From the NCBI GenBank assembly GCA_964436545.1, contig CAYTCJ010000005.1:12713-76712 (forward strand): a stretch of DNA of 64,000 nt. Direction: 5' to 3'. Under the pieces are notes generated by a model. The model did not search any database. It had not been told where the DNA came from and saw nothing but the letters and a program-made list of their open reading frames with translations. Shown one piece after another: positions 6,337 to 46,152 of the stretch. How positions within the stretch are numbered: position 1 is the stretch's first letter; each line of letters begins with the position of its first letter. A program made the translations under genes and the position numbers. The stretch is from an uncultured Candidatus Saccharibacteria bacterium. Lineage in GTDB: Bacteria; Patescibacteriota; Doudnabacteria; UBA920.

Positions 6337-8475
6337 ATGTTAGATAATAAAAATAAATTGAGGTTTAATGTTTTTTTCGGTTTGGTGTGTTTGGCGTTAA
6401 CTTCACCTTTGTGGGTGAGTAAACAATTATTATTCCCTTATGTCACCACCAAGGCATTTGTTTTGCGTTTGGCCATAGAGTTGGCTTTGCCATTTTATGC
6501 GTATTTTCTACTTACTCATCCTCAGAGTCGACCGAACCTTAAAAGTCCGCTAAATTTTGCTGTGGTTGGATTTGTGTTAACCACTTGGCTTTCTGCATTT
6601 TTTGGAGAAAATCTAATTAAGAGTGTTTTTGGTAATTTTGAAAGAATGGGGGGAGCCTTGTATGTGACTCATTTAGCCTTATTGTATTTTTATATTATTT
6701 TTTTGGGTCAAACGGCCTCCAAATATTTATTTCGCATACTGCAATTTTTTATTTTGGTTAGTTTTGTAATTTGTACCAATGGCGTGGTGGGATGGCTAGG
6801 CGGACCAACTTTGGTGTTGGATCCCAGCTTACCGGGGAGGGCTTCTTCCACTTTGGGCAACCCAATTTATTTAGGGGCTTTTGCCATTGTGCCCATGTTT
6901 TTGTGTTTATATTTTTTGTTAAACCAGTCTAAACTTTCCAGTAAAATTATTTATGGAGTGTTAGCGGTTATCTTTTTTTTAGCTATGATGCAAAGTGGAA
7001 CCAGAGGGGCTTTGGTTGGTGTGTTATTGGGTTTGGCGGTAGGAGTAATTTTATATATATTTTTAAACACCAGTAAAGCATTAAAGCAAAAGGGGATTAT
7101 TTTTATTGTAATTTGTGGTGGATTTTTTGGTTATTTGTTTTGGCAACCGCAAGTTTTACCCACAGGTAGCACGGTGCGGAGGATTTTTGAGTTGCGCGAT
7201 ACCAATACCAGCTCCAGAATTATTCAATGGCAAACGGCTTTGCGCGGGTTTAAAGATTATCCGTTCTTGGGAGTCGGACCGGAAAATTATTACGTGATTT
7301 CCAACAAATATTACAATCCCGAAAGCTACCAATACGACAGAAGCTGGTTTGATAAGCCTCATAACTATCCTTTAGAAATTTTAGTTACCGGCGGAATCAT
7401 TAACTTTATTTTTTATGTCGGGATAATTCTTTTTACCCTGAAGATTTTATTGGCGTCTTATAAACAAGAGTTTTTATCTTTATTGGAATTTTGTGTTTTG
7501 GTCGCCGGGTTGGTAGCTTATTTGGGGCAAAATATGTTTGTTTTTGATACCGTACCAACCAGTGTGGCCTTTTATGTGGTAATTGGCTTGGCCGGGGTTT
7601 TGGATATTTTAATGCAGAAAAAACAAAAATCAACTGTTGTTATTCCGGATTTACCTAAAATTTTTCGGTTCTCCATGGTAGGCCTAGTATTTTTGGTAGT
7701 CGTATATAGCGGTTATTATTTAAATTGGCTACCCATTTGGGCCTCTAAAAATACGAATTATGGATTAGCTTACGCTTCGATAAATTTAGAAAAATCGGTT
7801 GGGTATTTTAACGATGTGATTAATAATCAATTTAATTTTGATGTATCTGAATCTGCATCAAAATATGCCGATGCCTTATTGCCAGCTTTAACTCCAGAAG
7901 TGCTAGCTAAATTAGATAAAAGTAAACTGCTCCAGTATTTGCAATCTTTGGAAGAATATTTAGCTTTGGCGAGTTATAAATCGCCTTTGGATCCGATTTT
8001 ATTACAAAAATTAGCCAGTGTGAGATTTCAACTGGCCTATTATTCCAATTCTTTGAATTTATTCAATAGCGCAATTACAGATTTAGAACAAGCGGTGGCT
8101 TTGGCTCCTACCCGAGTGGAGGCCAGAGAAGCTTTGGCGCAAATTCGTATTTTTCAGGGTCAAGATGCAGAAGCCTTAAAGTTAGTGGAAAAAAACGTAG
8201 AATACGATAAAGCTTATTTTAAAACACGTTGGTTGTATGCCACCTTATTAAATAAAAATAAGCAAATAGAAAAAAGTATAGAACAAGCTTCGGTAGCTTT
8301 AGCATTAGGTTATGAGCCACATACTTTAGGTGAAGTAAAATGGCTAATTGACGCGTTGGTACAAAAACAAAATTTTAAACAAGTGGTAGCTGTGTATGAA
8401 TTGGTTAATAAGGCAAATAAATTAAGTTTAGAAGACCAACAGCAGTTGTTGAAATATCGAGCTAGGGAGCAGTAG
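6337..8475 (+). CDS. Second Wzy_C (O-antigen-ligase-like) membrane protein with a C-terminal TPR region; paralogue of 855-3083
   Basis: The same architecture and near-identical loop FKDYPFLGVGPENYYVISNKYYNPESYQYDRSWFDKPHNYPLEIL. It carries the SGTRGALVGVLLGL motif and a TPR-like C-terminus (LAPTRVEAREALAQIRIFQG...). Confidence 0.7.
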   Translation: MLDNKNKLRFNVFFGLVCLALTSPLWVSKQLLFPYVTTKAFVLRLAIELALPFYAYFLLTHPQSRPNLKSPLNFAVVGFVLTTWLSAFFGENLIKSVFGNFERMGGALYVTHLALLYFYIIFLGQTASKYLFRILQFFILVSFVICTNGVVGWLGGPTLVLDPSLPGRASSTLGNPIYLGAFAIVPMFLCLYFLLNQSKLSSKIIYGVLAVIFFLAMMQSGTRGALVGVLLGLAVGVILYIFLNTSKALKQKGIIFIVICGGFFGYLFWQPQVLPTGSTVRRIFELRDTNTSSRIIQWQTALRGFKDYPFLGVGPENYYVISNKYYNPESYQYDRSWFDKPHNYPLEILVTGGIINFIFYVGIILFTLKILLASYKQEFLSLLEFCVLVAGLVAYLGQNMFVFDTVPTSVAFYVVIGLAGVLDILMQKKQKSTVVIPDLPKIFRFSMVGLVFLVVVYSGYYLNWLPIWASKNTNYGLAYASINLEKSVGYFNDVINNQFNFDVSESASKYADALLPALTPEVLAKLDKSKLLQYLQSLEEYLALASYKSPLDPILLQKLASVRFQLAYYSNSLNLFNSAITDLEQAVALAPTRVEAREALAQIRIFQGQDAEALKLVEKNVEYDKAYFKTRWLYATLLNKNKQIEKSIEQASVALALGYEPHTLGEVKWLIDALVQKQNFKQVVAVYELVNKANKLSLEDQQQLLKYRAREQ

Positions 8476-9616
8476 TGGTTAGTTGAGAATAAATTTTTTG
8501 GGTTTCAGTTAGCATTTGGGTTTGGGAAAAATTCTGGGCTCTTTGCTCAGCTAAGTTAGCCAATTTTAGTTGCTCATTGGGGTTATTTATTAAATACTTT
8601 AGGGCCTCTGCTAAGGCTGGGGGTTGGTTAGCTTCTACTAGGATTCCCGCATTGTCCACAGCTTCAGGTATGCCCCCAACTTTAGTGGTAATTATAGGCA
8701 AGCCGGCTTGCATGGCTTCCAAGAGAGTATAGGGGAAACCCTCTTTTCTGGAAGGTAGAATAAAGATATCAAAAGCTTTTAGATAAACAGAAGCGTTATC
8801 AATGCTTCCCGGAGTGAGGACGATGCCTTCCAGTTTTAAATTTTTAATTTTTAATTTTAAATTTTTAAACTCTGGTCCATTGCCAATGAGGACGATTTGC
8901 ATTTTAGATTTTATTTCATTTGGCATTAAAGCCATGGCCTGCATTAGCGTATCTAAACCTTTGGTTTTGTAAAAACCAGCTATGGTGCCAATAATAAGTT
9001 TATTGGCGGGTAATTTTAAAAAACTTTGTGCCTCAGACTTTGGCAGAAAATTAATTGGTTCAATGCCATTGTAAATGGTGGAAATTTGATGTGGGGAAAT
9101 TAGTCGGTACTTTTGGGCAGAATGTTTATCGGCATTGGATACGCAAATTATGTAATCACGAAAGTGACTGGCCAGTTTTTCCGCAATTATGTAAAATATT
9201 TTTTTAATTAAACTCATCGGTTCGTTAAAAACAAATCCGTGTGCAGTAAAAATTGTTTTAGTTTTAAGCCCAATGCTGGCAAAACTGCCGAGAATGCCGG
9301 CTTTAGAAGAGTTTAGGTGAAGAATGTCGGGATTATAATTTTTAATTAGTTGGCGGATTTCCCCAATGGCCAAAATATCATGCCAAGGATTTAGGTTTCG
9401 TTTAAGATGCTTGATTGGGAAGGTGGTGATTTCTATTTTTTTTGCATCATCAAAAAGTGTTTGGGTGTCTATGCTCTTCGAGTCTGAGCCTGAGGGTTCG
9501 TTCCTCAGAGTCGCATGACCGGAAGCAATTGCACCTTTAAAATGTTTGGCTAAAGCGAGCGTGTATTTTTGCGCTCCACCTCTGTCCGCTTGAGTAATTA
9601 AATATAAAATTTTCAT
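8462..9616 (-). CDS. GT4 family (GT-B fold) glycosyltransferase
   Basis: It has the EGFPYTLLEAMQAGLPIITTKVGGIPE motif (the EX7E region of GT4) and an N-terminal MKILYLITQADRGGAQ. Confidence 0.7.
   Translation of the reverse strand: MKILYLITQADRGGAQKYTLALAKHFKGAIASGHATLRNEPSGSDSKSIDTQTLFDDAKKIEITTFPIKHLKRNLNPWHDILAIGEIRQLIKNYNPDILHLNSSKAGILGSFASIGLKTKTIFTAHGFVFNEPMSLIKKIFYIIAEKLASHFRDYIICVSNADKHSAQKYRLISPHQISTIYNGIEPINFLPKSEAQSFLKLPANKLIIGTIAGFYKTKGLDTLMQAMALMPNEIKSKMQIVLIGNGPEFKNLKLKIKNLKLEGIVLTPGSIDNASVYLKAFDIFILPSRKEGFPYTLLEAMQAGLPIITTKVGGIPEAVDNAGILVEANQPPALAEALKYLINNPNEQLKLANLAEQRAQNFSQTQMLTETQKIYSQLTTTAP
8834..8869. repeat. Imperfect tandem heptanucleotide repeat (ttttaaa/tttttaa, five units) inside the GT4 CDS
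   Basis: ttttaaatttttaatttttaattttaaatttttaaa, which encodes KNLKLKIKNLKLE on the minus strand. Confidence 0.5.
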
Positions 9617-9692: not shown

Positions 9693-10703
9693 ATGAAAAA
9701 AGCTTTAATTACTGGGATTACCGGACAAGATGGCAGTTTTCTCGCGGAATTATTACTTCATAAAGGTTACGAAGTCCATGGTGTAATTCGCCGAAGTAGC
9801 GTATTTAATACTGAACGGATAGAGAGTATTTATCAAGACCCGCATGAGCTACACAGGCGGTTGTTTTTGCATTATGGGGATTTGTCGGATGCTTCTAATT
9901 TAAATCAAATTCTGAAAACGGTTAAGCCTAATGAGATATATAATTTGGGCGCACAAAGCCACGTGCGAGTAAGTTTTGAAATTCCTGAATACACTGCCAA
10001 TGTAGACGCTTTGGGGACTTTAAGACTGCTAGATGCCGTAAGAGAAAATGGACTTACCACTAAAATTTATCAGGCAGGGAGCAGTGAAATGTTTGGTAAA
10101 GTTTTAGAAACCCCGCAAAGCGAAACCACGCCGTTTAATCCGGCTTCGCCGTATGGGGCAGCCAAAGTTTTTTCTCATCATTTATGTAAAGTTTACCGCG
10201 AAGGTTACAATATGTTTATTTGCAATGGGATCTTGTTTAACCACGAATCGCCAAGGCGGGGGAAAACTTTTGTCACGCGAAAAATTACCACCGGCATTGC
10301 GAGTATTTTAGCCGAAAAAACTGATAAGATTTATTTAGGTAATTTGGAAGCCAAGCGCGATTGGGGTTATGCTCCGGAATATGTGGAAGCTATGTGGTTA
10401 ATGCTTCAGCAAGACAAGCCTGATGATTTTGTAATTGCCACGGGCGAAACGCATACCATTAAAGAATTTTTAGAGACAGCGTTTGCGTTAGTTGGCATTA
10501 AAGATTGGGAAAAGTATATTGGGATTGACCCCAAGTACTACAGGCCGGTGGAAGTGGATATTTTGCAAGGCGATTACACCAAAGCCAAACAAATTTTAAA
10601 CTGGCAACCCAAAACCACTTTTAAGGAACTAGTAAAAATTATGCTGGAAGCCGACTTAAAAGAAGCCGGAGTTGGTGCGCATATGTTAAATTCTAAAAAT
10701 TAA
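9693..10703 (+). CDS. gmd: GDP-mannose 4,6-dehydratase
   Basis: N-terminal [30 protein letters not shown], plus [18 protein letters not shown] and [11 protein letters not shown], canonical Gmd signatures in an extended SDR. Confidence 0.85.
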
Positions 10704-10770
10704 ACCCTAAATAAGAATTGAATTATAAAAATAAACCATTTGTTTATAAAGTTTAGGGTTTATTTTTGTT
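10702..10770 (+). terminator. Putative terminator: aaaccctaaa...tttagggttt stem with a large loop, then T-run
   Basis: Inverted repeat at 10702-10711 / 10752-10761, followed by tatttttgttt. Confidence 0.3.
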
Positions 10771-10808
10771 TAGTTGTATAGAGTTTAGTCTTTAGAATTT
10801 ATATTACT

Positions 10809-11582
10809 ATGAAACTAATCTCATTAAATACCTGGGGCGCTACACAGGGGCAAATTTTTTTTGATTATGTAAAAGAACAGGCCAAAACTACGGATATTTT
10901 TTGTTTTCAAGAAATTTTTTCTGCTCAGGAGCCGTCACCGAAACTTTCATCTGGCGCTCGTTGTTTTTTATTTCAGGAGCTGGTAACGCTTTTACCCGGT
11001 TTTAAAGGTTATTTTGCCCCCCGTAGTCAAGGTTGTGACTTTACCGGTAAAGTTGATTTTGCTTTAGAGTATGGGCTCGCAGTCTTTGTTAAAGACCACT
11101 TGGAGCAACCCGAGCATTTTATAACTAATTTGCTGGAAGATGATCAAGAACCTACCATAGAAAGAAAAGTTATCGCTCAAATAATTAAGTTTAAAATCCA
11201 CAATAATTCTTTGAGTGTTATTAATTATCACGGGCCGGCTCAGCCGGGCCATAAATTGGATACACCATTAAGACTGGCTTGCTCTAAGTTTTTAAAAGGG
11301 GTATGGGAAAAAGCCAATTCCAATCATAAAATTCTTTGTGGAGATTTTAACTTAATGCCAGCTACTGAAAGTATAAAAATCTTGGAAGGTTGTGGAAAAA
11401 ATTTAATTTCCGTTTTTAATATCCAAAATACTCGGAATGAAATCTCTTGGGCCAAATACCAGAATCGGCAAAGTTTTGCGGATTTTACTTTTGTATCTTC
11501 CTTAGTTAAGGTAAAGGATTTTACCGTGCCATATAATTTAGTTTCCGACCATTTACCCATGGAGTTGGAGTTTGCAATATGA
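10809..11582 (+). CDS. Endonuclease/exonuclease/phosphatase (EEP) family protein
   Basis: ISLNTWG...IFCFQEI...CGDFNLMP...VSDHLPMELEF, the typical EEP catalytic motifs. Confidence 0.5.
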   Translation: MKLISLNTWGATQGQIFFDYVKEQAKTTDIFCFQEIFSAQEPSPKLSSGARCFLFQELVTLLPGFKGYFAPRSQGCDFTGKVDFALEYGLAVFVKDHLEQPEHFITNLLEDDQEPTIERKVIAQIIKFKIHNNSLSVINYHGPAQPGHKLDTPLRLACSKFLKGVWEKANSNHKILCGDFNLMPATESIKILEGCGKNLISVFNIQNTRNEISWAKYQNRQSFADFTFVSSLVKVKDFTVPYNLVSDHLPMELEFAI

Positions 11583-12652
11583 TTAACGTACTTTTTTGTG
11601 GCCTGAAAAATGAATATGGTAAATTAGAGGCGGGGTTGTCTTTTGAGTACCAAAATTTTTACTCAGTGCTTAAAAATATGGCCGGAGTAAATTGTGAGTT
11701 ATTTGCCATAGATGAGGTTATGCGAGAAAAGGGGAGAGAAGCCATGAATCATGCTTTAATCCGGCAAGTTGAGGACAAGCAGTATGATTTATTGTTTTGT
11801 TTTTTGTTTACCGAGGAGCTGAAAAAAAGCACGATTCGGTTTATTACCGAAAAAACCAAAACTTTAACTTTTAATTGGTTTGCCGATGATCATTGGCGGT
11901 TTCCCATTTATTCTAAGTATTGGGCGCCGTTTTTTACCAAAGTTTCCACCACCGATTCTTTAGCTGTGGCTAAATATAAAGCCATGGGTGTGGAGGTAAT
12001 TAAAACTCAGTGGGGAGCCAATACCCATTTATATAAACCCTTCAGTAATCAGCAGTCAGTAAATCAGCCAGCAGGCGATAATTACCACATTACTTTTGTG
12101 GGAAAAAATTATGGCAATCGTTCACAATATATTAACAGTTTAAAATTAGCGAATTTGCCAGCCGAAGGTTACGGGGGAGGGTGGCCTTCGGGCAGGGTGA
12201 ATTTTGAACAAATGCTGGAGATTTTTTCCCATTCCAAAATCAATTTAAATTTTACCGAAAGCTCGTTAGAATGGAAAAAAGAATTGGTAAAGTTGTTGGT
12301 TAAGAAAGAACTGGGTCGCTATAAATTCAGCGGGCATAATATTATTCAAAATTTACAAGCTTTAACCGGAAAATTAAGAAGGCAAATTAAGGGGCGAACT
12401 TTTGAGGTGCCCGCTTGTGGCGGGTTTTTATTAACCGGTCATGCGGACAATTTGTCAGAGTATTATGTAGCGGGTAAGGAAATTGTCAGTTTTACCAATA
12501 CCAGTGATTTAATTGAGAAGTGCCAATATTATTTAGCCCATGAAGCAGAACGTCAGAAAATTGCTCAAGCCGGTTATGAGCGGACTGTAAAAGAGCATAG
12601 TTATGAACACAGATTCAAACAAATTTTTTCGGCTTTGGGACTAAAAATCTAA
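11579..12652 (+). CDS. CgeB-like (Glyco_trans_1_2 / DUF3880-type) glycosyltransferase-like protein
   Basis: The C-terminal RTFEVPACGGFLLTGHADNLSEYY...ERQKIAQAGYERTVKEHSYEHRFKQI resembles the spore-maturation CgeB C-terminal domain. Confidence 0.45.
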   Translation: MINVLFCGLKNEYGKLEAGLSFEYQNFYSVLKNMAGVNCELFAIDEVMREKGREAMNHALIRQVEDKQYDLLFCFLFTEELKKSTIRFITEKTKTLTFNWFADDHWRFPIYSKYWAPFFTKVSTTDSLAVAKYKAMGVEVIKTQWGANTHLYKPFSNQQSVNQPAGDNYHITFVGKNYGNRSQYINSLKLANLPAEGYGGGWPSGRVNFEQMLEIFSHSKINLNFTESSLEWKKELVKLLVKKELGRYKFSGHNIIQNLQALTGKLRRQIKGRTFEVPACGGFLLTGHADNLSEYYVAGKEIVSFTNTSDLIEKCQYYLAHEAERQKIAQAGYERTVKEHSYEHRFKQIFSALGLKI

Positions 12653-12718: not shown

Positions 12719-13690
12719 ATGAAAAAAGCCATTATAAGTGGAATTACCGGACAGGACGGGTCGTATTTGGCGGAACTACTTCTCTCTAAGGGGTACGAAG
12801 TGCATGGGATTATGCGCCGACTATCTTCGTTTGCCTCTACTCGGATTGACCATTTAATTAATCATAATTCTAATTTGCATACTTACCACGGAGATTTAAC
12901 CGATAACGCCTCCATTGCCGGTTTGATTGCCGATGTCAAGCCCGATGAATTTTATAATTTGGGCGCCATGTCGCATGTTAAAGTGTCTTTTGAGATTCCT
13001 CAATATACTTTGGAAACCAATGCAGTGGGAGTTTTAAATGTTTTGGAAGCGATTAGAAAGTTTTCGCCACACACTAAATTTTATCAAGCTTCCAGCTCGG
13101 AAATGTTTGGCGTGCCGGGCGTGCCGGCGCCTTTTAATGAAACCACACCCATGATGCCTCAAAGTCCCTATGGGGTGGCAAAATTAGCCGCCTATCATTT
13201 AACAAGGCAATACCGAGATGGGTATGGTCTTTTTGCGACTACCGGGATTTTGTTTAATCACGAAAGTCCCAGACGGGGAGGCACTTTTGTAACTAAAAAA
13301 GTTTCAAAAGCAGTGGCCAGAATTAAACAAGGATTACAAAAAGAATTGGTGTTGGGTAATTTAGATGCCAAACGCGATTGGGGTTGGTCTCCGGAATTTG
13401 TGGAGGCGATTTATTTAATTATGCAACATTCTAAGCCCGATGTCTTTGTTGTCGCCACCGGAGAAACGCACACGATTAAAGAGTTTGTGGAAGAAGCGTT
13501 TAAGTATGTAGGCCTTAATTGGCAAGATTATATTAAGATCGATGAAAAATATAAAAGGCCCAACGAAGTGCCTTTGCTACTCGGCGATGCTACTAAAACC
13601 AAGCAAGTTTTAGGTTGGGAACCCAAAATGAAATTTAATGAGATTGTCCACGCCATGGTGGATTATGATTTACAACACTTAAATGATTAG
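12719..13690 (+). CDS. gmd: GDP-mannose 4,6-dehydratase, second paralogue
   Basis: [59 protein letters not shown]. Confidence 0.8.
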   Translation: MKKAIISGITGQDGSYLAELLLSKGYEVHGIMRRLSSFASTRIDHLINHNSNLHTYHGDLTDNASIAGLIADVKPDEFYNLGAMSHVKVSFEIPQYTLETNAVGVLNVLEAIRKFSPHTKFYQASSSEMFGVPGVPAPFNETTPMMPQSPYGVAKLAAYHLTRQYRDGYGLFATTGILFNHESPRRGGTFVTKKVSKAVARIKQGLQKELVLGNLDAKRDWGWSPEFVEAIYLIMQHSKPDVFVVATGETHTIKEFVEEAFKYVGLNWQDYIKIDEKYKRPNEVPLLLGDATKTKQVLGWEPKMKFNEIVHAMVDYDLQHLND

Positions 13691-14072: not shown

Positions 14073-14079
14073 TAATTCT

Positions 14080-15291: not shown

Positions 15292-15397
15292 AAGCCGAGA
15301 TCGTGGATTTATTTATGAAACTTATTAATTTATTAAAATTTTATAATCATTAATTTTAAAGCAATCGTGATTTCGATCGCGATCTGCTTCTAACAGG

Positions 15398-15847: not shown

Positions 15848-15856
15848 AGTTGTTGT

Positions 15857-17483: not shown

Positions 17484-17566
17484 AGTAATGACAAAATTGA
17501 AAAAAATGAACTGGAAAATTAATTTTTGTTCATTTCCGTCGCTTTTGTCATTTATGTCAATTTTTT

Positions 17567-34607: not shown

Positions 34608-34675
34608 TATTAAGTAGACAATTTGTAATTTATCCATTATGATTTATTAATAATCAAGCTAAAAAATCCACACAT

Positions 34676-36779: not shown

Positions 36780-36783
36780 TTAT

Positions 36784-38010: not shown

Positions 38011-38834
38011 AAATTGGGATTATCGGGTTAGGTTTTGTGGGGGGAGCTATGCGGAAATTTTTTTTAAATAAAAAAGTCAACGCATTAGTCTTTGATAAAT
38101 ATAAAAATATTGGTTCGGTAACTGAAGTAAACGAAGCGGATGTGGTTTTTATTTGCGTGCCAACTCCGTATCGCACCCAGCATGGGTTTGATATATCGGC
38201 GGTAGTGGATGCCATTAGTATCTTAGTTAAGCCAAAAATTATTGTAATCAAATCCTCAATTATTCCCGGTACTACGGAGAAATTACAGAAACAATTTTCT
38301 CAGCATAAGTTTTTATTCAACCCGGAGTTTTTAACTGAAAAAAAAGCTTATTATGATTTAACTCATCCCGATAGGCAAATTTTGGGCTGGACTCAAAAGA
38401 GTAAATCAGTAGCTAAAAAAGTTTTAAATATTTTGCCAAAGTCCCATCAGAGTTTAATTATACCCAGTCAAGAAGCGGAAATGATAAAGTATATGGCCAA
38501 TACCTTTTTGGCATTAAAGGTGGTGTATGCTAACCAGTTTGCGGATTTGTGTAAAAAATTAAAGATCAATTACTCCGTAGTGGCAAACGGAGTGGGTTTA
38601 GATAAGCGAATTGGATTATCTCACCTGAATGTTTTAGACGGCGGTTATAAAGGTTATGGGGGAAGTTGTTTTCCCAAAGATGTTAATGCCATTATTGAAT
38701 TAGCGCAAGCCAAAAAATTACCTTTCGATTTATTGGTGACCATGCGTACAATTAACCAAAAATATTTACAGCAAAGTGGTTTGACCGAAGAGTATTTTTT
38801 AAACAATTTACACAAAAGTAATGAGAAAAAGTAA
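38007..38834 (+). CDS. Nucleotide-sugar dehydrogenase (UDP-glucose 6-dehydrogenase family), a short form lacking the C-terminal UDP-binding domain
   Basis: MKIGIIGLGFVGGAM, VVFICVPTP, and the catalytic GYGGSCFPKD. At only 275 aa it compares with about 390-440 aa for canonical Ugd. Confidence 0.6.
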   Translation: MKIGIIGLGFVGGAMRKFFLNKKVNALVFDKYKNIGSVTEVNEADVVFICVPTPYRTQHGFDISAVVDAISILVKPKIIVIKSSIIPGTTEKLQKQFSQHKFLFNPEFLTEKKAYYDLTHPDRQILGWTQKSKSVAKKVLNILPKSHQSLIIPSQEAEMIKYMANTFLALKVVYANQFADLCKKLKINYSVVANGVGLDKRIGLSHLNVLDGGYKGYGGSCFPKDVNAIIELAQAKKLPFDLLVTMRTINQKYLQQSGLTEEYFLNNLHKSNEKK

Positions 38835-39780
38835 TCAGAAAACAGTTTTAGTGGCTGGGGGAGCGGGGTTTGTGGGGAGTAATTTATGCGAATATTTAAT
38901 TTCGCGGGGTGATTGGGTAATTGCTCTAGATAATTTGAGCACCGGAAATAAAAGTAATATTAAGCATTTATTGGAGCATCCGAGATTTGGGTTTATAAAA
39001 TGTGATGTAACTCACCCCTCCCTTGCCCTCCCCCTCAAGGGGAGGGAACTATATCAGATTTACCATTTGGCCTCTCCGGCCAGTCCACCACATTATCAAA
39101 AAGAACCAATTGCCACTTGGCAGGCAAATACTTTAGGTACTTTAAATTTGTTGGAGTTGGCCAAACAGCATAAGGCGAAGTTTTTATTTGCTTCCACCAG
39201 TGAGGTTTACGGTGATCCTAAAGTGCATCCGCAAACAGAAAGTTATTGGGGAAATGTTAATCCGGTTGGTATAAGAGCGTGTTATGATGAAAGTAAAAGA
39301 GCCGGGGAAAGTTTGGTAATGAGTTATGTAAGGCAATTTAAGCTAGAAGCCAAAGTGGTACGGATTTTTAACACTTATGGTCCTAAAATGGATAGTAATG
39401 ATGGACGAGTAGTGTCTAATTTCATTAATCAAGCTTTAGAGAATCAGCCTATAACCATTTACGGTAAGGGGAAGCAAACCCGCAGTTTTATGTATATAGA
39501 TGATCTGGTGTTAGGGTTAACCAAAATGATGCAAGCCAAATTTTCCGGCCCGATAAATTTAGGTAATCCGGAAGAATTTACGATTCTAGAGTTGGCAAAA
39601 AAAGTTCTTGTATTGACCAAATCATCATCAAAACTGGTTTATAAACCTTTGCCCCAAGACGACCCCAAGCAAAGAAAACCCGAGATTACTTTAGCCAAAA
39701 CCAAATTAATGTGGGCTCCAAAAGTTAAATTAGAGGCAGGTTTAATTAAGACAATCAATTATTTTAAAAATGTTAGATAG
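38821..39780 (+). CDS. uxs: UDP-glucuronate decarboxylase (UDP-xylose synthase)
   Basis: VLVAGGAGFVGSNLCEYL, IYHLASPASPPHY, YDESKRAGESL, the UXS/ArnA-decarboxylase motifs. Confidence 0.7.
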   Translation: MRKSNQKTVLVAGGAGFVGSNLCEYLISRGDWVIALDNLSTGNKSNIKHLLEHPRFGFIKCDVTHPSLALPLKGRELYQIYHLASPASPPHYQKEPIATWQANTLGTLNLLELAKQHKAKFLFASTSEVYGDPKVHPQTESYWGNVNPVGIRACYDESKRAGESLVMSYVRQFKLEAKVVRIFNTYGPKMDSNDGRVVSNFINQALENQPITIYGKGKQTRSFMYIDDLVLGLTKMMQAKFSGPINLGNPEEFTILELAKKVLVLTKSSSKLVYKPLPQDDPKQRKPEITLAKTKLMWAPKVKLEAGLIKTINYFKNVR

Positions 39781-40555
39781 TGAAATTAAAATTCATCCAT
39801 ATCCCAAAATCCCACTTTTGCCCGAAGAGCGAGAGGTCATGGTTAGCCAAGGGGAAGAAAAATTACCCGGGACTCCCAAAAGTGCCGAAGCCTCATTATT
39901 ATTAGACAGAGAAATAAATAAGGTTTTGAGATTTGATGGAAAAAATTCTCAAGATATAAAAAATTTTTGCAGAAGTCTTTTAGAAGACTGGGTAAACAAT
40001 CCGGACAACATGGTGGGATTTTTTAGTAGAGCTTATGAGCAATCTCAGAATAGCCAAGATTTTGCAACAAGAGTTAAAACATTGGAAACATGTCTAACTC
40101 AAAATTTAGCAGATTTGCTGAAGCGAGTGGAAAGTCCAAAGGCGAATGCCATTGGCAAATTTATGAAATTAGCCGTGACAAATCCAATATACGGAGATCG
40201 TGCCCGGGCGATTTTAAGAGGATTTTTTGAAAATGCTCACACCCCGGCTCAATTTATTGATTTATTATATGAGTTTGGTATTGCTTTTATGAAAGAAAGC
40301 GATAGGCAGATGTCAGATGAGTTGTGTAAAATTTTATTGTGGGATTCTGATATTTGTCCTAGATCGCGCGAAAGGGCAATGCGATATCTCTTAGCATTAT
40401 ATATGCAAGGTGGTGAAGTAGTATTTAAGAAATGGACGGAAATAGATGCAGTAATTGCCATGTTTTGTAAAAAGCAACTGCCAGAATCTTCCCAATTATT
40501 TATTGAACAAATAAATGATATCGGTGATGATCGTGAGCTATGGATGTGGGATTGA
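39770..40555 (+). CDS. Hypothetical cytoplasmic protein with no recognisable domain
   Basis: A 261-aa ORF. Its composition (R/E/D/C/W-rich) differs from the neighbouring glycan enzymes. Confidence 0.35.
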   Translation: MLDSEIKIHPYPKIPLLPEEREVMVSQGEEKLPGTPKSAEASLLLDREINKVLRFDGKNSQDIKNFCRSLLEDWVNNPDNMVGFFSRAYEQSQNSQDFATRVKTLETCLTQNLADLLKRVESPKANAIGKFMKLAVTNPIYGDRARAILRGFFENAHTPAQFIDLLYEFGIAFMKESDRQMSDELCKILLWDSDICPRSRERAMRYLLALYMQGGEVVFKKWTEIDAVIAMFCKKQLPESSQLFIEQINDIGDDRELWMWD

Positions 40556-41568
40556 AATTTTGTAGAGATAATCCAGACAAAAAGGATGGCTATATAACAT
40601 ACCGTAGCTTAACAATAGAAGCAGAAAAAAAATTTGGTTTAGTTAAAGTAAGTGGTGAGACATTAGGAAATGTATGGCCATTTACTTTATTTTCCAACCC
40701 TGGGCCTTTAAAAGTTTTGTATAATAAACGATTGGAGCAAGAAAATCCCAACATTGTTCGCATTAGAGTTCCAAATTCACAGACGGGTGAGAGTTTATTA
40801 AAAGTTAAATCACAAAATGAAATAAATAGATATATAATTGAGAATTTAGCTTCTGCTAGAGAACTGACCTTAATTGGCAGAGCTGATGTGGAATTTTTGT
40901 TTTATTTAAGGCCAGAGATTACAAGTGATAAATTAGATGAATTAGCTTTGACAAATTCAAATATCAAACAAAAAATTGTTGTAAGTAAGATTTACGGAAT
41001 TAGTCCAAGGGGCGATAGGGTGTTAGTGACGGCAGATGAAGCTAAGAAGTTAAAATATCATAATGTTTGTTATGAGTTGAGTCCGTCTAACGTGGAAGTA
41101 CCTATAAAATGCACGGTTTTAGTGGATAGAACACAAGTTGTCTTTGGTATAAATAAAAATTATGATGTTGTAGAATTTCCTACTGGAGCAGAGTTGGAGG
41201 TTGAGGCAAAAAAAAGAGCTTTTTTAGATTATTTTATTTTAAGTCATTTATATGAACTACAGTGTTCCGAAAGAATACAACATGGATCAGATCGGCAAGG
41301 AGTTAGTAGAGAAAGTGAATTTAGAGATCGTAGAGCCCATTTACGGCGTTTACCTCAAGGCCAAAAGCCATCAGCTGATGCAATCGGACGAGCAAATCAA
41401 GATCCAAATAGGTTTAATTTAATTGAAATAAACCGAATGAATGACATAGCTGGTAACTCTTCACAAACTTATGTCAGTCCTGTTCATAAGCCAGCACCAG
41501 GGGATCAGCCACTATTATCTTATGCGCCAAACGCATTTGATACTTTTAGAAGTATTATTACTAAGTAG
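40540..41568 (+). CDS. Hypothetical protein with no recognisable domain
   Basis: A 342-aa ORF overlapping the previous gene by 16 nt. Its C-terminal third is R/Q/D-rich and low-complexity. Confidence 0.35.
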   Translation: MDVGLKFCRDNPDKKDGYITYRSLTIEAEKKFGLVKVSGETLGNVWPFTLFSNPGPLKVLYNKRLEQENPNIVRIRVPNSQTGESLLKVKSQNEINRYIIENLASARELTLIGRADVEFLFYLRPEITSDKLDELALTNSNIKQKIVVSKIYGISPRGDRVLVTADEAKKLKYHNVCYELSPSNVEVPIKCTVLVDRTQVVFGINKNYDVVEFPTGAELEVEAKKRAFLDYFILSHLYELQCSERIQHGSDRQGVSRESEFRDRRAHLRRLPQGQKPSADAIGRANQDPNRFNLIEINRMNDIAGNSSQTYVSPVHKPAPGDQPLLSYAPNAFDTFRSIITK

Positions 41569-41571
41569 TTT

Positions 41572-42465
41572 ATGCTTTATTTATATAACGAATATTTTTC
41601 TTTTTTGCCAAAGCTAAAGCGGTTTTTGGGTAAACCTTCTCGGGGCCCGGAAGCGGTTTTTAATAATTTAATTTTAGGACTTAAGGAAATTGGCCAGGAG
41701 TTTTTAGTTAATCAGCCTTTTTCTGAAAGAATGGACAAGGTTTGTGTTTTAAGCGGAATAGAAGTTTTAAAAAAGGCCATAAAACAAAAAAAATTGGGAA
41801 AAATTAACACACTCATTGCCGGGCCAAATATTGTGGTGCATCCTAACGAAGCCGAAGGGATTTTAAAATCATCGGAAATTGATTGTCTGATAGTACCCAG
41901 TCTTTGGGTAAAAGATTTTTATATTTCACTTGCTCCGGAATTAAAAAATAAAATTCAAATTTGGGCATCCGGAGTTGCCGACCAGGGTAGTAAATTAGCG
42001 ACTACCGAGGAAGTTTTTGTTTATGATAAATCACCTAATGGGTGCTTGCCGGAAAAAATCAATCAATTTTTACAAGCTCAAGGACAGCGGGTAAATTATC
42101 AGGTGTACGGCAAAATCAATCATGAGGCATATTTGGCTAAGCTCAAAAAGACTGCGTTTATGGTATATTTAAGTGGAAGCGAAAGCCAAGGGTTAACCTT
42201 GTTTGAAGCATGGATGGCTAATGTGCCGACTTTGGTTTGGGATAGGGGGTATATGCAGTATAAGAACTTAACCTGGCAAGGCAATACTTCTGCTCCATAT
42301 TTAAGTAAAGAAACCGGGTTATTTTTTAGAGATCTGGAAGATTTTAAAGAAAAATATCAATATATGTTGGCGCATTATGCTGAGTTTAATCCCCGAGTAT
42401 ATATGCTGAAAAATTTTACTAATAAAATTACCACTGAAAATTTTTTAAAACTTATTAGTCTTTAA
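41572..42465 (+). CDS. GT-B-like glycosyltransferase fragment or short form
   Basis: SESQGLTLFEAWMANVPTLVWDRG resembles the GT4 EX7E region. Confidence 0.35.
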   Translation: MLYLYNEYFSFLPKLKRFLGKPSRGPEAVFNNLILGLKEIGQEFLVNQPFSERMDKVCVLSGIEVLKKAIKQKKLGKINTLIAGPNIVVHPNEAEGILKSSEIDCLIVPSLWVKDFYISLAPELKNKIQIWASGVADQGSKLATTEEVFVYDKSPNGCLPEKINQFLQAQGQRVNYQVYGKINHEAYLAKLKKTAFMVYLSGSESQGLTLFEAWMANVPTLVWDRGYMQYKNLTWQGNTSAPYLSKETGLFFRDLEDFKEKYQYMLAHYAEFNPRVYMLKNFTNKITTENFLKLISL

Positions 42466-42510: not shown

Positions 42511-43248
42511 ATGCTACGAAAAATAATCAAAAAACTTTATAGGATAATTATCGCCTTAATTAGCAGTTTATTTTGGTATACGAGGGATTGGTTTAAATAT
42601 AAAAATTTGTTAAATCAAGGGGGTAAAGAAGAAAATTTAAAGGTATTTCCGCAAATTTTTGACAGTGCTCCGGGAAGTCATACTTTTGATAAACATTATG
42701 TATATATGGACAGGTGGGCATTTAAACAAATTTTAAAACATAAGCCCTCGGTCCATATTGATGTGGGATCTTCCATTCGGTTTTTATCTATGGTATCGGC
42801 CATTACTCAGCTTAAGTTTGTAGATATTCGTCCCATTAAAACCGATTTTGATAATTTTGAATGCATTACCGGAAGTATTTTAAAGATGCCTTTTGAGAGC
42901 GAATCAGTAGTGTCTTTGTCGTGTTTGCATGTGGCTGAACATATTGGTTTGGGCAGATACGGGGATCCTTTAGATATTTTAGGTACGCAAAAAGCTTGTA
43001 GTGAATTGGCCAGAGTTTTAGCCCCGGGTGGACGTTTATATTTTGCTTTACCGATTGGGAAATCGGCAATATATTTTAATGCTCATCGGGTGCATAGTCC
43101 GGAGATAATTTTAACATATTTTAAAGATTTGCAACTCCAGAGTTTTTCGGTAATTACTGATCAAGGTCATTTTATGGAAAGAGCTAATATTGAAGATTAC
43201 AAGGACGCCACTTATGCTTGCGAGTGTTTTGAATTTACAAAAGATTAG
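42511..43248 (+). CDS. Class I SAM-dependent methyltransferase-like protein (DUF268-like)
   Basis: HIDVGSSIRFL...GSILKMPFESESVVSLSCLHVAEHIGLGRYGDPLD...LAPGGRLYFALPIG. Confidence 0.4.
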   Translation: MLRKIIKKLYRIIIALISSLFWYTRDWFKYKNLLNQGGKEENLKVFPQIFDSAPGSHTFDKHYVYMDRWAFKQILKHKPSVHIDVGSSIRFLSMVSAITQLKFVDIRPIKTDFDNFECITGSILKMPFESESVVSLSCLHVAEHIGLGRYGDPLDILGTQKACSELARVLAPGGRLYFALPIGKSAIYFNAHRVHSPEIILTYFKDLQLQSFSVITDQGHFMERANIEDYKDATYACECFEFTKD

Positions 43249-43289
43249 ATCTATTTTTTAATACCTTACTCTGCTTGTAGACAAAAATT

Positions 43290-44054
43290 ATGAAAAATTT
43301 TTTAAAGTTTTTTTTAGGCAAAAGATTTGGACAAAAGTTTTTTAGACTGCTTTATGTTTTGAGTTTAAAAGGTATGAACTATGGTGGGGGGAGTAATTAT
43401 CAAGAGAGCGGGGAAGAGTGGGTGTTAAAATATATCGCCAAACAGACACCGGTTGCATCAATGGTGGTTTTTGATGTGGGTGGAAATGTAGGTAATTATG
43501 CAACTCAAGTGGCTAAAATTTTACCTTTGGCTAAAATTTTTAGTTTTGAGCCGGCTAAAAAAACCTTTGAAAGGTTACAGAAACACACTCAGGGCTACAA
43601 AAGTATTACCGCTTACAATTTGGCATTAGGTAATCAAACCGGCAAGGCGGTTTTATATTCTCACACTCACGAGTCAGGTTTGGCATCGGTGTATGACCGA
43701 GTCGGTTTAGATTTAAATTATCGGGAAGAAATTCAAATTAGTACTATTGATAATTTTTGTGAAGAACATAACCTAACCCGAATAGATTTTTTAAAGTTAG
43801 ATATTGAAGGGAATGAATATCGAGCATTAGAGGGGGCTCTTAAGATGCTAAAGGGGAATAAAATAAAATATATTCAATTTGAGTTTGGCGGAACCGATAT
43901 TGACGCCAGGATATTTTTTAGAGATTTTTATAAGTTACTCGCGCCTCAATACCAGCTGTTCAGGATTTTAAAAAATGGTTTGCACCCCATAGTTACTTAT
44001 CAAGAGACGGAAGAAATTTTTATTACCACTAATTATTTTGCAGAATTGAAATAA
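43290..44054 (+). CDS. FkbM-family methyltransferase
   Basis: MVVFDVGGNVGNYA, FSFEPAKKTFERL, KLDIEGNEYRALEGA. Confidence 0.6.
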   Translation: MKNFLKFFLGKRFGQKFFRLLYVLSLKGMNYGGGSNYQESGEEWVLKYIAKQTPVASMVVFDVGGNVGNYATQVAKILPLAKIFSFEPAKKTFERLQKHTQGYKSITAYNLALGNQTGKAVLYSHTHESGLASVYDRVGLDLNYREEIQISTIDNFCEEHNLTRIDFLKLDIEGNEYRALEGALKMLKGNKIKYIQFEFGGTDIDARIFFRDFYKLLAPQYQLFRILKNGLHPIVTYQETEEIFITTNYFAELK

Positions 44055-44055
44055 T

Positions 44056-44829
44056 ATGCCCAAGGTCTCTGTAAATATTTTAACCAAGAATCGAGCCCGG
44101 CTGATACAGCGGTGCTTGGCCAGTGTGCAAAAACAGAGCTTTGCGGATTTTGAGATTGTGGTGGTAAATGATGGTTCTAACGATGAGACTGAGAAAATTT
44201 TAGAAGATTTTAAGGCCTCCGGCTCAAATTATAAAATTATTCAACATAAAATATCTTTGGGGATTACGCAAAGTCGACAAGAGGCTTTAGTAGCTTCGCA
44301 GGGCGAGTATATTGCCTTATTGGATGATGATGATGAATGGTTGGATATTGATAAATTAACAAAACAAGTAAATTTTTTAGACGAGCATCAAGAGTATGTT
44401 TTGGTGGGAGGAGGAATAAAAATAGAGTTAGGCATTAAGTCCACCAGAGGTGGATCCTCCTTTGGTGGAAATTATGAATTAAGAATGAGACCAGAGACAG
44501 ATGAGCAAATAAGAAAAACAATGTTGTTGAAAAATAACTTTTTTACTTCCACGGTTATGTTTAGAAGGGCAGAGGCAATAAAAGCGGGGGGATTCATAAA
44601 AGATGAACTGGATTTGGTAGAAGATTACGATTTGTGGCTTAGACTCGGCAAAGTGGGTAAGTTGTATAATTTTTCGGATGTATTTACCAAATATGCACAA
44701 AATGGTTATAATAAAGACAGGTTTAAAAGGTTTTTAATCAAACAGGGTTGGTTGGTTAAGCGATATAGTAAGGCTTACCCGTATGCCACAGTATCCCAAT
44801 TAATAATTAAGTTACGGCAATTAATGTGA
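44056..44829 (+). CDS. GT2 family glycosyltransferase
   Basis: VSVNILTKNRARLIQRCLASVQKQSFADFEIVVVNDGSNDET...LLDDDDEW. Confidence 0.6.
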   Translation: MPKVSVNILTKNRARLIQRCLASVQKQSFADFEIVVVNDGSNDETEKILEDFKASGSNYKIIQHKISLGITQSRQEALVASQGEYIALLDDDDEWLDIDKLTKQVNFLDEHQEYVLVGGGIKIELGIKSTRGGSSFGGNYELRMRPETDEQIRKTMLLKNNFFTSTVMFRRAEAIKAGGFIKDELDLVEDYDLWLRLGKVGKLYNFSDVFTKYAQNGYNKDRFKRFLIKQGWLVKRYSKAYPYATVSQLIIKLRQLM

Positions 44830-44841
44830 TGGAGTTGGATT

Positions 44842-46152
44842 ATGTTAAATAAAAGAAATTCCATTGGCTTTTGGTTAATTTTTATCCCGGACGTATGTTT
44901 ATTGTATCTAAGCTTGTTTTTAGCTTTGCGGATTCGCTATGGGCAAGGTTTGACTCCGGAAATTCAAGATACGCATATTAAGGCTTTTTCATTAGTTTTT
45001 ATTTTTTGGCTAGTCGTGTTATTTAGTCATGGCTTGTTTGATTTTTCGGTTTTAAGGCGATATACCAAATTGTTTTTTAGTCTGCTTTCCGCCAGTGTGG
45101 TTAATATTGTTATTGCCATAATTATTTTTTATTTACAATCTAATTGGCTCCTAAGACCGGGCAGATTTTTAATTTTGCAAGTTGCTTTGGCCTTTGGGCT
45201 GTTATTTTTATGGTATTTGCTGATTAAATATATTTTTAAAAACCGATTAACTCAGGGTTTGTATCTGTTTTCATTCAACAACGAACTGCGGGAGTTAGAA
45301 CAGGAGATTTTAGCTAATAGCTTTTTAGGCTTTAAAGTTTTAGGTCATTTAAATGCCGAGACGTTAGGTAGTATTAAATTTAATTCTTCCGTAGGGATTA
45401 TTTTGCCCGACAATTTACAAGCTAATCCGGAAATATTAAAAAAGTTTTACGAATTAAGGACTTTAGGGGTGAATTTTTATAACCATAAAAATTTTTACGA
45501 ACAGTTGTTACGCCGAGTGTACTTATCGCAAATAAATGAAATTTGGTTTTTGGAAAATATTGAATATAGAGAAAAACGCATCTATAATTTGGTTAAACGT
45601 TTGGTAGATATATTTTTAGGTTTGGTGGGTGTGATTTTGTTTTTTATTTCTTTGCCTTTTGTGTCGCTGGTGATTTTATTAAATTCTCGGGGCGGGGTAT
45701 TCTTTGCTCAAGAAAGAATCGGTCAGCATGGTAAGAAATTTAAGGTATATAAATATCGTTCTATGAAGCAGGGTACCGCAACCAATACTTGGACTTCGGT
45801 TAATGACCCGCGAATTACCTCGGTGGGAAAATTTTTAAGAATGTCTCGGATTGATGAACTGCCCCAGTTTATTAATTTAATTTTGGGGAATATGAGTTTA
45901 GTCGGCCCTAGGCCGGAGCAACCGCATTTGGTGGAAGACTTAAAACGCACGGTGCCGTTTTATGACGAAAGGCATTTGGTTAAACCCGGACTTACCGGTT
46001 GGGCCCAATTGAATATTTACGCTTCCACTTTGGAGGAAACCAAATTAAAACTTCAGTATGATTTATATTACATTAAACATAGAAGCATTTTGTTTGATTT
46101 GGAAATCATTATTAAGACCATTTATTATATTTTTACTTGGCAAGGGAGATAA
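44842..46152 (+). CDS. Initiating polyprenyl-phosphate sugar-1-phosphate transferase (bacterial sugar transferase, WbaP/PglC family)
   Basis: N-terminal TM helices. The C-terminal domain carries KYRSM, DELPQFINLILGNMSLVGPRPE and GLTGWAQ, the PF02397 signature. Confidence 0.75.
   Translation: MLNKRNSIGFWLIFIPDVCLLYLSLFLALRIRYGQGLTPEIQDTHIKAFSLVFIFWLVVLFSHGLFDFSVLRRYTKLFFSLLSASVVNIVIAIIIFYLQSNWLLRPGRFLILQVALAFGLLFLWYLLIKYIFKNRLTQGLYLFSFNNELRELEQEILANSFLGFKVLGHLNAETLGSIKFNSSVGIILPDNLQANPEILKKFYELRTLGVNFYNHKNFYEQLLRRVYLSQINEIWFLENIEYREKRIYNLVKRLVDIFLGLVGVILFFISLPFVSLVILLNSRGGVFFAQERIGQHGKKFKVYKYRSMKQGTATNTWTSVNDPRITSVGKFLRMSRIDELPQFINLILGNMSLVGPRPEQPHLVEDLKRTVPFYDERHLVKPGLTGWAQLNIYASTLEETKLKLQYDLYYIKHRSILFDLEIIIKTIYYIFTWQGR

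Follow-up and report, generated by a model that had tools for sequence, protein, structure and literature searches.

Which machinery completes and delivers a surface glycan when its gene locus makes several nucleoside diphosphate (NDP) sugars but carries no polymerase and no exporter? The question is raised by a 64,000-nucleotide stretch of contig CAYTCJ010000005.1 (assembly GCA_964436545.1), deposited as an uncultured Candidatus Saccharibacteria bacterium and called the window throughout. From the letters alone, the original prediction had described positions 8462–46152 as a 38-kb composite glycan locus and had proposed that the Wzy_C/TPR (tetratricopeptide repeat) proteins at the head of the window transfer a short, methylated oligosaccharide en bloc. 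Domain searches and comparison with related genomes confirm that 8462–46152 is a real 38-kb surface-glycan gene cluster of a Patescibacteria (Candidatus Doudnabacteria-like) bacterium. With moderate confidence, the locus is read here as a Wzx-dependent protein O-glycosylation system, in which a methylated, deoxysugar-rich oligosaccharide would be passed en bloc to a surface protein. Support for the en-bloc step comes from the match of the two Wzy_C/TPR proteins (g02 and g05) to the ligase WaaL, from their conserved Arg-Arg-His residues and predicted outward TPR domain, and from their synteny with glycan genes.

The locus consists of 39 packed open reading frames (ORFs; g06–g44), 38 of them on the plus strand; neighbouring ORFs overlap or lie no more than about 100 bp apart, and the guanine-plus-cytosine (G+C) content is about 36% across the locus and both flanks. 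Every ORF of the window (60 ORFs) was scanned with Pfam and, for polytopic membrane proteins, by hydropathy, and selected ORFs were compared with NCBIfam and with the sequences of the Protein Data Bank (PDB). The surroundings of the locus were searched to the window limits, 8.4 kb to the left and 18 kb to the right. Relatives were collected with a degenerate-pattern scan based on g05 across 185,579 species genomes, which gave 44 loci. Nearly all of these belong to metagenome-assembled genomes of Patescibacteria (candidate phyla radiation, CPR), Candidatus Doudnabacteria predominating, and the top match is 77% identical; many records under the name 'uncultured Candidatus Saccharibacteria' have this gene order as well. 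What these analyses show directly is gene content, folds, conserved residues, and synteny. The features, from left to right, are listed below.

1–686, plus strand: g01, C-terminal 227 amino acids of a large, secreted surface protein rich in Ser/Thr; its reading frame is still open at base 3 and extends past the left window end
855–3083, plus strand: g02, Wzy_C (WaaL/PglL-type) membrane transferase with C-terminal TPR, paralogue 1 (Pfam Wzy_C 77.8 bits, TPR)
3207–3515, plus strand: g03, small membrane protein with three transmembrane (TM) segments by hydropathy
3534–6332, plus strand: g04, secreted LCAT-like alpha/beta hydrolase with Ig-like domains, 932 amino acids (Pfam LCAT 63.6 bits, Big_13)
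6337–8475, plus strand: g05, Wzy_C transferase with TPR, paralogue 2 (Pfam Wzy_C 76.0 bits, TPR)
8462–9616, minus strand: g06, divergent GT4 glycosyltransferase, which opens the conserved head (Pfam Glycos_transf_1 121 bits)
9693–12652, plus strand: g07, GDP-mannose 4,6-dehydratase (GMD); g08, EEP-family phosphoesterase; g09, Glyco_trans_1_2 glycosyltransferase; conserved head (Pfam)
12719–16546, plus strand: g10, second GMD; g11, WbuC-like cupin; g12, NDP-hexose C-methyltransferase; g13, small cupin-like protein; g14, short-chain dehydrogenase/reductase (SDR) of short form, 229 amino acids (Pfam, NCBIfam)
16539–19923, plus strand: g15, Fcl-like GDP-4-keto-6-deoxymannose epimerase/reductase; g16, GT2 glycosyltransferase; g17, Wzx flippase with 12 TM segments (Pfam, NCBIfam, PDB, hydropathy)
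19904–25674, plus strand: g18, RmlC-like; g19, C-methyltransferase; g20, RfbB; g21, extended SDR; g22, RmlD; g23, no family (Pfam, NCBIfam, PDB)
25746–31570, plus strand: g24, methyltransferase; g25, sugar-phosphate nucleotidyltransferase; g26, fusion of a nucleotidyltransferase and an APH-like kinase; g27, GatZ/KbaZ-like; g28, member of a rare family
31567–35929, plus strand: g29, SDR; g30 and g31, split transketolase; g32, Nudix protein (Gmm-like, weak); g33, NDP-4-keto-6-deoxyhexose 3-dehydratase dependent on pyridoxamine phosphate (PMP)
35934–42465, plus strand: g34, GT2 glycosyltransferase; g35, GT4-like glycosyltransferase; g36, short UDP-glucose dehydrogenase (Ugd); g37, UDP-xylose synthase (UXS); g38 and g39, soluble proteins; g40, sub-threshold GT1-like protein
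42511–46152, plus strand: g41, DUF268-type methyltransferase; g42, FkbM methyltransferase; g43, GT2 glycosyltransferase; g44, initiating phosphoglycosyltransferase (PGT; Bac_transf, WbaP/WsaP-like); conserved tail
46253–51723, plus strand: type IV pilus assembly operon, with PilB, PilC, PilM, PilN-like, and PilO-like genes (Pfam)

Assembly enzymes and the paired Wzy_C-TPR transferases

The assembly enzymes first named for this locus were upheld by domain searches. The initiating PGT is g44 (Bac_transf 202 bits, N-terminal TM segments), the flippase Wzx is g17 (Polysacc_synt_3 53 bits), and there are five methyltransferases, namely g12 and g19 (both of C-methyltransferase type), g24, g41, and g42. 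Six glycosyltransferases exceed Pfam cut-offs (g06, g09, g16, g34, g35, and g43); with the sub-threshold g40 and the weakly GT-B-like g28, the earlier count of 'about eight' is a fair one. Both the glycosyltransferase and the methyltransferase calls held when the ORFs were annotated by domain.

The statement that the locus lacks Wzy, Wzz, Wza/Wzc, and ABC-transporter genes also stands, both within it and in the 8.4 kb and 18 kb on either side. Pfam finds no ABC, Wzz, Poly_export, or LCP domain in any of the 60 window ORFs. The method is able to find Wzm/Wzt pairs, since it picked up an ABC pair (ABC2_membrane plus ABC_tran) in an unrelated Moranbacteria locus (L045). Five ORFs with no Pfam family (g11, g23, g28, g38, and g39) were considered as a hidden Wzy and ruled out, all being soluble by hydropathy. 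Within the locus, the hydropathy scan marks only g17 and g44 as polytopic, and thus no Wzy is concealed there. In this lineage, Wza/Wzc would not be expected in any case, and its absence counts for little.

As possible Wzy proteins, only g02 and g05, which lie outside the locus, come into question; both exceed the Wzy_C gathering cut-off (PF04932, 31.7 bits), and they are 36% identical to each other. Against the PDB, a full-length profile of the family was swamped by TPR proteins, and the membrane domain alone was used instead; it has one solved relative, WaaL of Cupriavidus metallidurans (7TPG, E = 1e-9), with which the GTRGA and HN motifs of the family align. Residues R223, R294, and H342 are invariant across 42 homologues, both paralogues included, and correspond in position to residues that are essential in E. 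coli WaaL (R215/R288/H338) and in Neisseria PglL (R224/R298/H349) (PMC3643930). An AlphaFold (AF2) model of g05, made from 42 homologues with a predicted local distance difference test (pLDDT) of 91 and a predicted template-modelling score (pTM) of 0.89, shows a WaaL-like core of 12 TM segments, a further TM helix (the 13th) at 441–478, a TPR solenoid at 484–710, and, as in WaaL, a large outward loop between TM9 and TM10. In a Foldseek search with this model, WaaL (7tpg_B; target-normalised template-modelling score, TMt, 0.59) was the sole membrane-protein fold match. The Lys/Arg-rich loops of g05 alternate as expected for a cytoplasmic N-terminus, and this alternation, together with the 13th TM helix, places the conserved loops, the catalytic loop (270–343), and the TPR on the outer face. 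The TPR domain of g05 is accordingly modelled as extracytoplasmic, a predicted position beside the catalytic loop. The window proteins and 7TPG have the 12-TM core and the catalytic Arg/His in common, whereas the former add the 13th helix and a predicted extracytoplasmic TPR of about 230 amino acids, and the window gives no sign of a lipid A-core pathway.

The presence of two such proteins invites a different reading, in which one paralogue is a Wzy-like polymerase and the other a ligase, and the product is a long O-antigen-like chain. PF04932 is indeed a ligase/polymerase superfamily, and 7TPG, its only solved relative here, was named 'polymerase/ligase' by its depositors; moreover, the two ancient paralogues occur side by side in many genomes (17 of the 44 loci, in the stretch retrieved). 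Because Wzy_C is also the fold of some polymerases and the paralogues are two, chain length is unsettled. However, both paralogues have the same invariant Arg-Arg-His and the same predicted outward TPR, a pattern that fits two acceptor-binding transferases better than a polymerase. The window has no chain-length regulator, and about seven to nine glycosyltransferases with one PGT suit a single long unit. We know of no Wzy polymerase with a TPR domain. A polymer system is considered unlikely.

For the acceptor, the gene directly left of g02 is the prime candidate. Ser and Thr make up 30.8% of g01, versus 10.6% of the other window proteins. The g01 homologue in one relative (L003) is a protein of 1215 amino acids with a signal peptide, encoded directly upstream of the g02 homologue, and the same position is occupied in another (L023); to the left of the locus, the DNA of relatives encodes such a large Ser/Thr-rich secreted protein and housekeeping genes. 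Judged by composition and position, g01 is a candidate glycan acceptor, possibly S-layer-like. Between the two Wzy_C-TPR genes sits the LCAT-like gene g04, which recurs beside them in at least seven relatives (including L003, L006, L010, L014, L028, and L036).

Ligation to something other than a protein has also to be weighed, with the Wzy_C-TPR proteins joining the glycan to a lipid anchor or a cell-wall polymer, and with g01 and the pilus genes as bystanders. The nearest solved fold, WaaL, is that of a ligase acting on a lipid acceptor, no PglL-specific motif was detected, and synteny alone is no proof of a substrate relation. On the other hand, Pfam finds no genes for lipopolysaccharide core, lipid A, or teichoic acid and no LCP ligases in the window. 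TPRs are protein-binding modules and are present on the S-layer O-oligosaccharyltransferase (O-OTase) WsfB (PMC2943079), and O-OTase genes are usually located beside the gene of their target, as g02 adjoins g01 (PMC3643930). Taken together, these points make a non-protein acceptor improbable.

Several observations nevertheless weigh against protein O-glycosylation as the function of the locus. The Wzy_C fold fails to separate ligases, O-OTases, and polymerases. For g02 and g05, Pfam reports Wzy_C and TPR only, and neither a PglL_A nor a PglL_B motif was detected, which places both proteins in the Wzy_C superfamily but outside the proteobacterial PglL subfamily. The O-OTase PilO likewise has neither motif (PMC3643930), and an O-OTase activity of g02 and g05 is not excluded by their absence. 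The g01 family has no known domain in Pfam, and its S-layer identity is that of a candidate only. A six-frame search of the window for the class III signal motif (G-F/W/Y/M-S/T-L/I/V/M-L/I/V/M/P-E) found no pilin gene. As to the sugars, the feeder enzymes ManB/ManC, RmlA, and GalU and an E3-type reductase are absent from the window, and the Ugd g36 has no C-terminal UDP-binding domain. Finally, no glycan or glycoprotein has been experimentally established in this lineage.

Conserved ends and a variable centre

Comparison with relatives bears directly on whether the locus is a single unit. Head genes were counted where the last Wzy_C/TPR gene is followed by 6 kb or more of sequence, as in 29 of the related loci: the divergent GT4 g06 occurs in 24 of the 29, g09 in 19, a GMD in 15, an Fcl-like gene in 14, and an EEP gene in 13. 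From gene order, the conserved head is best described as GT4-GMD-EEP-GT-Fcl (g06–g09 and g15) and the conserved tail as g40–g44 (GT-PGT-PilB), with a variable centre between them. Close PGT orthologues in metagenome contigs are 62–65% identical to g44, and the tail order g40/g41/g43/g44, followed by PilB-PilC-PilM-N-O, is kept in four of the loci (L055, L057, L058, and L059). In L033, PilB comes almost straight after a Wzy_C/TPR gene; in L040, such a gene is followed by a mini-locus of 7 kb that ends in PGT-PilB.

The centre behaves differently. One closely related contig, which comprises L051 and L048, is collinear with the window at 52–93% protein identity, but it is without g10–g14, and other genes replace g20/g21. 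In L052, g18–g20 are 85–92% identical to their counterparts, whereas g25/g26 are only 50–56% identical. Conserved ends with a recombining centre (52–93% identity, with gain and replacement of cassettes) mean that the locus is truly composite, a mosaic, as had been proposed. The g10–g14 cassette (12719–16546) looks self-contained and gained by recombination. O-antigen and capsule loci are built similarly, with conserved ends and a centre that differs between related genomes. The gene content first given for the locus stood, with the correction that g11 and g13 are small cupins and that g10–g14 are a cassette specific to the window; no mention had been made of the pilus operon or of the Ser/Thr-rich protein at the flanks. 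Within the head of L051, a gene for a 23S-rRNA-intervening-sequence-type protein (PF05635; 5790–6182) is inserted between the EEP and glycosyltransferase genes.

Such a division could mean that two or more glycan systems stand side by side, a lineage-wide core made by the head and a strain-specific glycan made by the centre and tail, each with its own Wzy_C-TPR transferase. The head is conserved by itself in most relatives while the centre is variable, identity ranges from 52% to 93% module by module, and there are two transferase paralogues to share out. Yet the window has a single Wzx and a single PGT, and all genes but one lie on the same strand with minimal gaps. In addition, the Tannerella cluster provides a precedent for a conserved core and a variable extension within one glycan (PMC6120980). 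Separate systems are thus regarded as very unlikely, and a single Wzx-dependent pathway is followed below.

Parts of the arrangement extend well beyond Doudnabacteria. In distant CPR metagenome contigs, the PGT adjoins a divergent Wzy_C homologue in at least 20 cases, often together with a Ugd/UXS pair, which suggests that a minimal set of PGT, transferase, and xylose genes is widespread in the CPR. In a series of metagenome contigs (L063–L127), the Wzy_C homologues beside the PGT are 23–31% identical to g02/g05.

Sugar-nucleotide branches and the kinase-nucleotidyltransferase module

Four sugar pathways had been read from the locus. Their genes are present, but the split into four is only approximate, as the kinase and nucleotidyltransferase genes may feed other sugar branches. 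Of the GDP-6-deoxyhexose genes (two gmd and one fcl), the gmd pair was borne out and the fcl gene is Fcl-like: g07 and g10 are firm GMDs (467 and 413 bits on PF16363; 55% identical to each other), and g15 has GDP-fucose synthases as its top PDB matches (about 1e-54), although its NCBIfam Fcl score of 264 is under the cut-off of 500. Within the g10–g14 cassette, g12 is, like g19, an NDP-hexose C-methyltransferase with Methyltransf_13 and Methyltransf_14 domains, and the cassette likely makes a GDP-6-deoxy-C-methyl-hexose. Its small gene g13, which gives a sub-cut-off Polysacc_synt_C score of 26 bits, was considered as a Wzx remnant and ruled out, as it has no TM segment and carries a cupin-like RGSHYHKK motif.

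The dTDP-rhamnose-like branch stood in part. In NCBIfam, g20 (RfbB, 392 bits, cut-off 365) and g22 (RmlD, 277 bits, cut-off 224) exceed their cut-offs, whereas the RmlC-like g18 stays below (121 bits, cut-off 156), and the resemblance of g21 to CDP-glucose 4,6-dehydratases, which had been joined to this branch, is weak (155 bits, under a cut-off of 278). No RmlA equivalog was found in the window by NCBIfam, only the generic nucleotidyltransferase g25. Because the C-methyltransferase g19 sits between g18 and g20, the product is probably other than plain rhamnose, and g18–g23 are best taken as a putative dTDP-6-deoxy(-C-methyl)hexose branch.

The PMP-type 3-dehydratase was correctly called. The DegT-family protein g33 (34676–35929) aligns end to end with Yersinia E1 (RfbH/DdhC) at 312 bits, and its SFYASHNMT aligns with SFYPAHHIT of E1, putting a His at the aminotransferase Lys position; this is the residue marked by the H220K mutant 3BB8, and it is the hallmark of the PMP type. 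Unlike E1, g33 has none of the three clustered cysteines of the [2Fe-2S] site (E1 RDCYCAPGCDNTC; g33 RALPERYEHYEGAF), and Pfam finds no E3-type reductase in the window. The loss of the iron-sulfur cysteines and the lack of an E3 reductase make a mechanism like that of ColD more likely, and g33 is probably ColD-style. At 93% identity in L048, it is the locus's most conserved protein.

The call of g37 as a UXS was also sustained, its match to human UXS1 being full-length (E = 5.6e-107). The short Ugd g36 (38007–38834, 275 amino acids) consists of the NAD-binding (Rossmann) and central domains and keeps the catalytic Cys of GGSCFPKD. Short Ugd genes (275–283 amino acids) are kept in L048 (20368–21219) and L039 (3589–4353), always with UXS following them; thus, g36 is no casual pseudogene.

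The branch that the original prediction called unusual centres on g26 (27643–29229), in which an RmlA-like nucleotidyltransferase domain is fused to a kinase domain of APH/choline-kinase fold (the APH match is weak, 23.6 bits). A free-standing copy of its first domain, 44% identical to it, is encoded by g25, and g27 is a weak GatZ-like match. For g26, neither the curated families of NCBIfam nor the sequences of solved structures in the PDB give a significant match. More than 2,300 homologues were detected at E <= 1e-5, those with names coming from Moranbacteria, Parcubacteria, Gribaldobacteria, Azambacteria, and others. In Doudnabacteria-type loci, the neighbours of the fusion are g25, g27 (GatZ/KbaZ-like), and g28. 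The window, L048, and L052 have all four genes together, but of these three only the window and L048 also have transketolase and Nudix genes. In Moranbacteria and Parcubacteria, the neighbours are an HxlB-like isomerase (195 bits, cut-off 160), a ribulose-phosphate 3-epimerase (225 bits, cut-off 213), a KdsC-like phosphatase, and a g24-like methyltransferase. The partner genes of the fusion all act on ketose phosphates, from which we infer that the g26-centred module would turn a ketose phosphate into an NDP-activated sugar or polyol. In L054 (6072–7316), a g25-like nucleotidyltransferase is fused to an HxlB-like isomerase.

Two established pathways were considered for this module and do not fit it. 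A classical NDP-heptose pathway is not encoded, with GmhA and GmhB missing from the window, and in CPR relatives the SIS partner is HxlB-like (GmhA 20 bits) and the HAD partner KdsC-like. A LicC/LicA phosphocholine pathway fails in that neither a choline-kinase nor a LicC model matches and no LicD occurs in the window. Bifunctional kinase/pyrophosphorylase salvage enzymes and LicC-LicA proteins are known, such as Bacteroides Fkp, AmgK/MurU, and Treponema LicCA. Like these, g26 joins a kinase to a nucleotidyltransferase, an arrangement for phosphorylation followed by NDP activation; unlike them, it has no curated or solved match, no LicD accompanies it, and its partners (GatZ-like, HxlB-like, ribulose-phosphate 3-epimerase, KdsC-like phosphatase) act on ketose phosphates. 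A literature search on transketolase in glycan loci, CPR glycosylation, and LicCA fusion found nothing directly applicable.

The last member of the group, g28 (30326–31570), belongs to a family of which 15 members were detected among 5.8 billion proteins, all at least 36% identical and always near the g26 fusion. It has no relative in Pfam, NCBIfam, or the PDB. Its AF2 model is confident only in the N-terminal, Rossmann-like half (pLDDT 64 in the C-terminal half), and the fold matches are weakly GT-B/Rossmann-like. Homology of g27 and g28 to the unknown genes beside the Moranbacteria fusion was considered and rejected, as no similarity was found. A bolder proposal, that g25–g28 constitute a CPR-wide and so far undescribed route from the ketose-phosphate pool to an activated sugar or polyol and, separately, that the twin TPR transferases divide an S-layer-like protein and type IV pilins between them, is put forward tentatively and as rather doubtful.

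The proposed pathway, known systems, and meaning

In the protein O-glycosylation pathway proposed for this locus, the WbaP/WsaP-like PGT g44 would start the glycan on polyprenyl phosphate, and seven to nine glycosyltransferases would lengthen it while it is lipid-linked. The donors made by the locus would be GDP-6-deoxyhexoses (including the C-methyl branch), a dTDP-6-deoxy-C-methylhexose or rhamnose-type sugar, a 3-deoxygenated 6-deoxyhexose, and UDP-xylose, with a sugar or polyol from the nucleotidyltransferase-kinase module as a further donor. Five methyltransferases would decorate the sugars or the glycan, and Wzx (g17) would flip the finished unit. Outside the membrane, g02 and/or g05 would then pass the unit en bloc onto Ser/Thr of surface proteins, with the g01 product as prime candidate acceptor and pilins as a second possibility. 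The scheme agrees with all of the data; the glycan, its length, its acceptor, and every enzyme specificity in it are inferred from the genes.

The kind of system is a known one, namely a conventional Wzx-dependent glycosylation cluster, and by analogy its layout corresponds to that of an S-layer/protein O-glycosylation cluster. In Gram-positive S-layer glycan clusters, the Wzy_C O-OTase either bears a C-terminal TPR itself (WsfB) or is WsaB, accompanied by a TPR protein encoded apart (WsaA/WsaB); they also have rml genes, a WsaP-type PGT, and an S-layer gene nearby (PMC2943079). The present locus resembles them in the Wzy_C domain with C-terminal TPR, the WsaP-type PGT, the rml-type genes, the methyltransferases, the mostly one-strand polycistronic layout, and the surface-protein gene close by (PMC2943079). 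It differs in having two tandem TPR transferases, in being much larger (38 kb), with GDP-, dTDP-, UDP-, and further sugar branches, and in that its surface protein lies outside the recognised S-layer families, its host is a CPR bacterium, and a pilus operon occupies the other flank. It has a Wzx only, whereas Geobacillus uses an ABC transporter.

The PglL/TfpO/PilO systems of Neisseria, Acinetobacter, and Pseudomonas offer a second comparison. In these, an oligosaccharide is built on undecaprenyl diphosphate by a PGT and glycosyltransferases, flipped, and transferred en bloc by a Wzy_C enzyme with Arg-Arg-His, and a transfer of the same type is what the residues of g02 and g05 suggest here. 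Some species, for example of Acinetobacter, have two OTases. The locus departs from these systems in that PglL_A/PglL_B motifs were not detected, and in having a giant Ser/Thr-rich protein as candidate target, no pilin gene in the window, and a presumed monoderm envelope. A third parallel is the 27-kb general O-glycosylation cluster of Tannerella forsythia, which makes a complex methylated decasaccharide found on S-layer and other proteins and combines a conserved core with a part specific to the strain or species (PMC6120980). As described there, it is likewise a large polycistronic set of glycosyltransferases, methyltransferases, sugar-synthesis genes, and a flippase (PMC6120980). In Tannerella, however, the core is encoded elsewhere and the abstract describes no OTase gene in the cluster, whereas head, centre, tail, and candidate transferases are contiguous here (PMC6120980).

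To the right of the locus follow, in order, PilB, PilC, PilM, PilN-like, and PilO-like genes, two tRNAs, asd and aspartokinase, holA, a copper-resistance cluster, and typA. The asd (52682–53818) and aspartokinase (53722–55296) genes form a 2.8-kb island (52600–55400) whose G+C content of 56–64% contrasts with the 35% of the genome; tRNA-Arg(tcg) and tRNA-Lys(ctt) immediately precede it. In the syntenic L033, the same two tRNAs lie between PilO and holA without asd and aspartokinase. Either the island was inserted recently at a tRNA site by horizontal transfer, or the assembly is chimeric here; rRNA was ruled out as the cause of the GC-rich 52.6–55.4 kb, where Rfam finds only the two tRNAs and asd and aspartokinase are encoded. 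On the minus strand, 57412–61646 holds the copper/heavy-metal resistance cluster, with a cupredoxin-like protein, a membrane protein with DsbD_2 and HMA domains, a P-type ATPase with HMA, and a DUF305 protein.

What is new lies in the host lineage and in a tandem pair of TPR transferases whose fixed site has a giant Ser/Thr-rich protein on one flank and a pilus operon on the other. The E1-like dehydratase without an iron-sulfur cluster, the conserved two-domain Ugd, and the CPR-wide kinase-nucleotidyltransferase module are also new. Patescibacteria, which live attached to other microbes, account for much of bacterial diversity, yet next to nothing is known about their surface chemistry; in a 2024 study of Saccharibacteria pili, glycosylation in that group was described as "unexplored" (PMC11623550). 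The present comparison suggests that the surface-glycan island of Doudnabacteria is hypervariable in content but fixed in chromosomal position, between a giant Ser/Thr-rich surface protein with two O-OTase candidates and the pilus machinery. For host recognition, phage evasion, and strain typing, the locus supplies concrete candidates; it also supplies clonable enzymes, including the candidate TPR-bearing O-OTases, the cluster-less 3-dehydratase, the two-domain Ugd, and the kinase-nucleotidyltransferase fusion. If the twin TPR transferases do divide an S-layer-like protein and pilins between them, this would be the first protein-glycosylation machinery defined in Patescibacteria.

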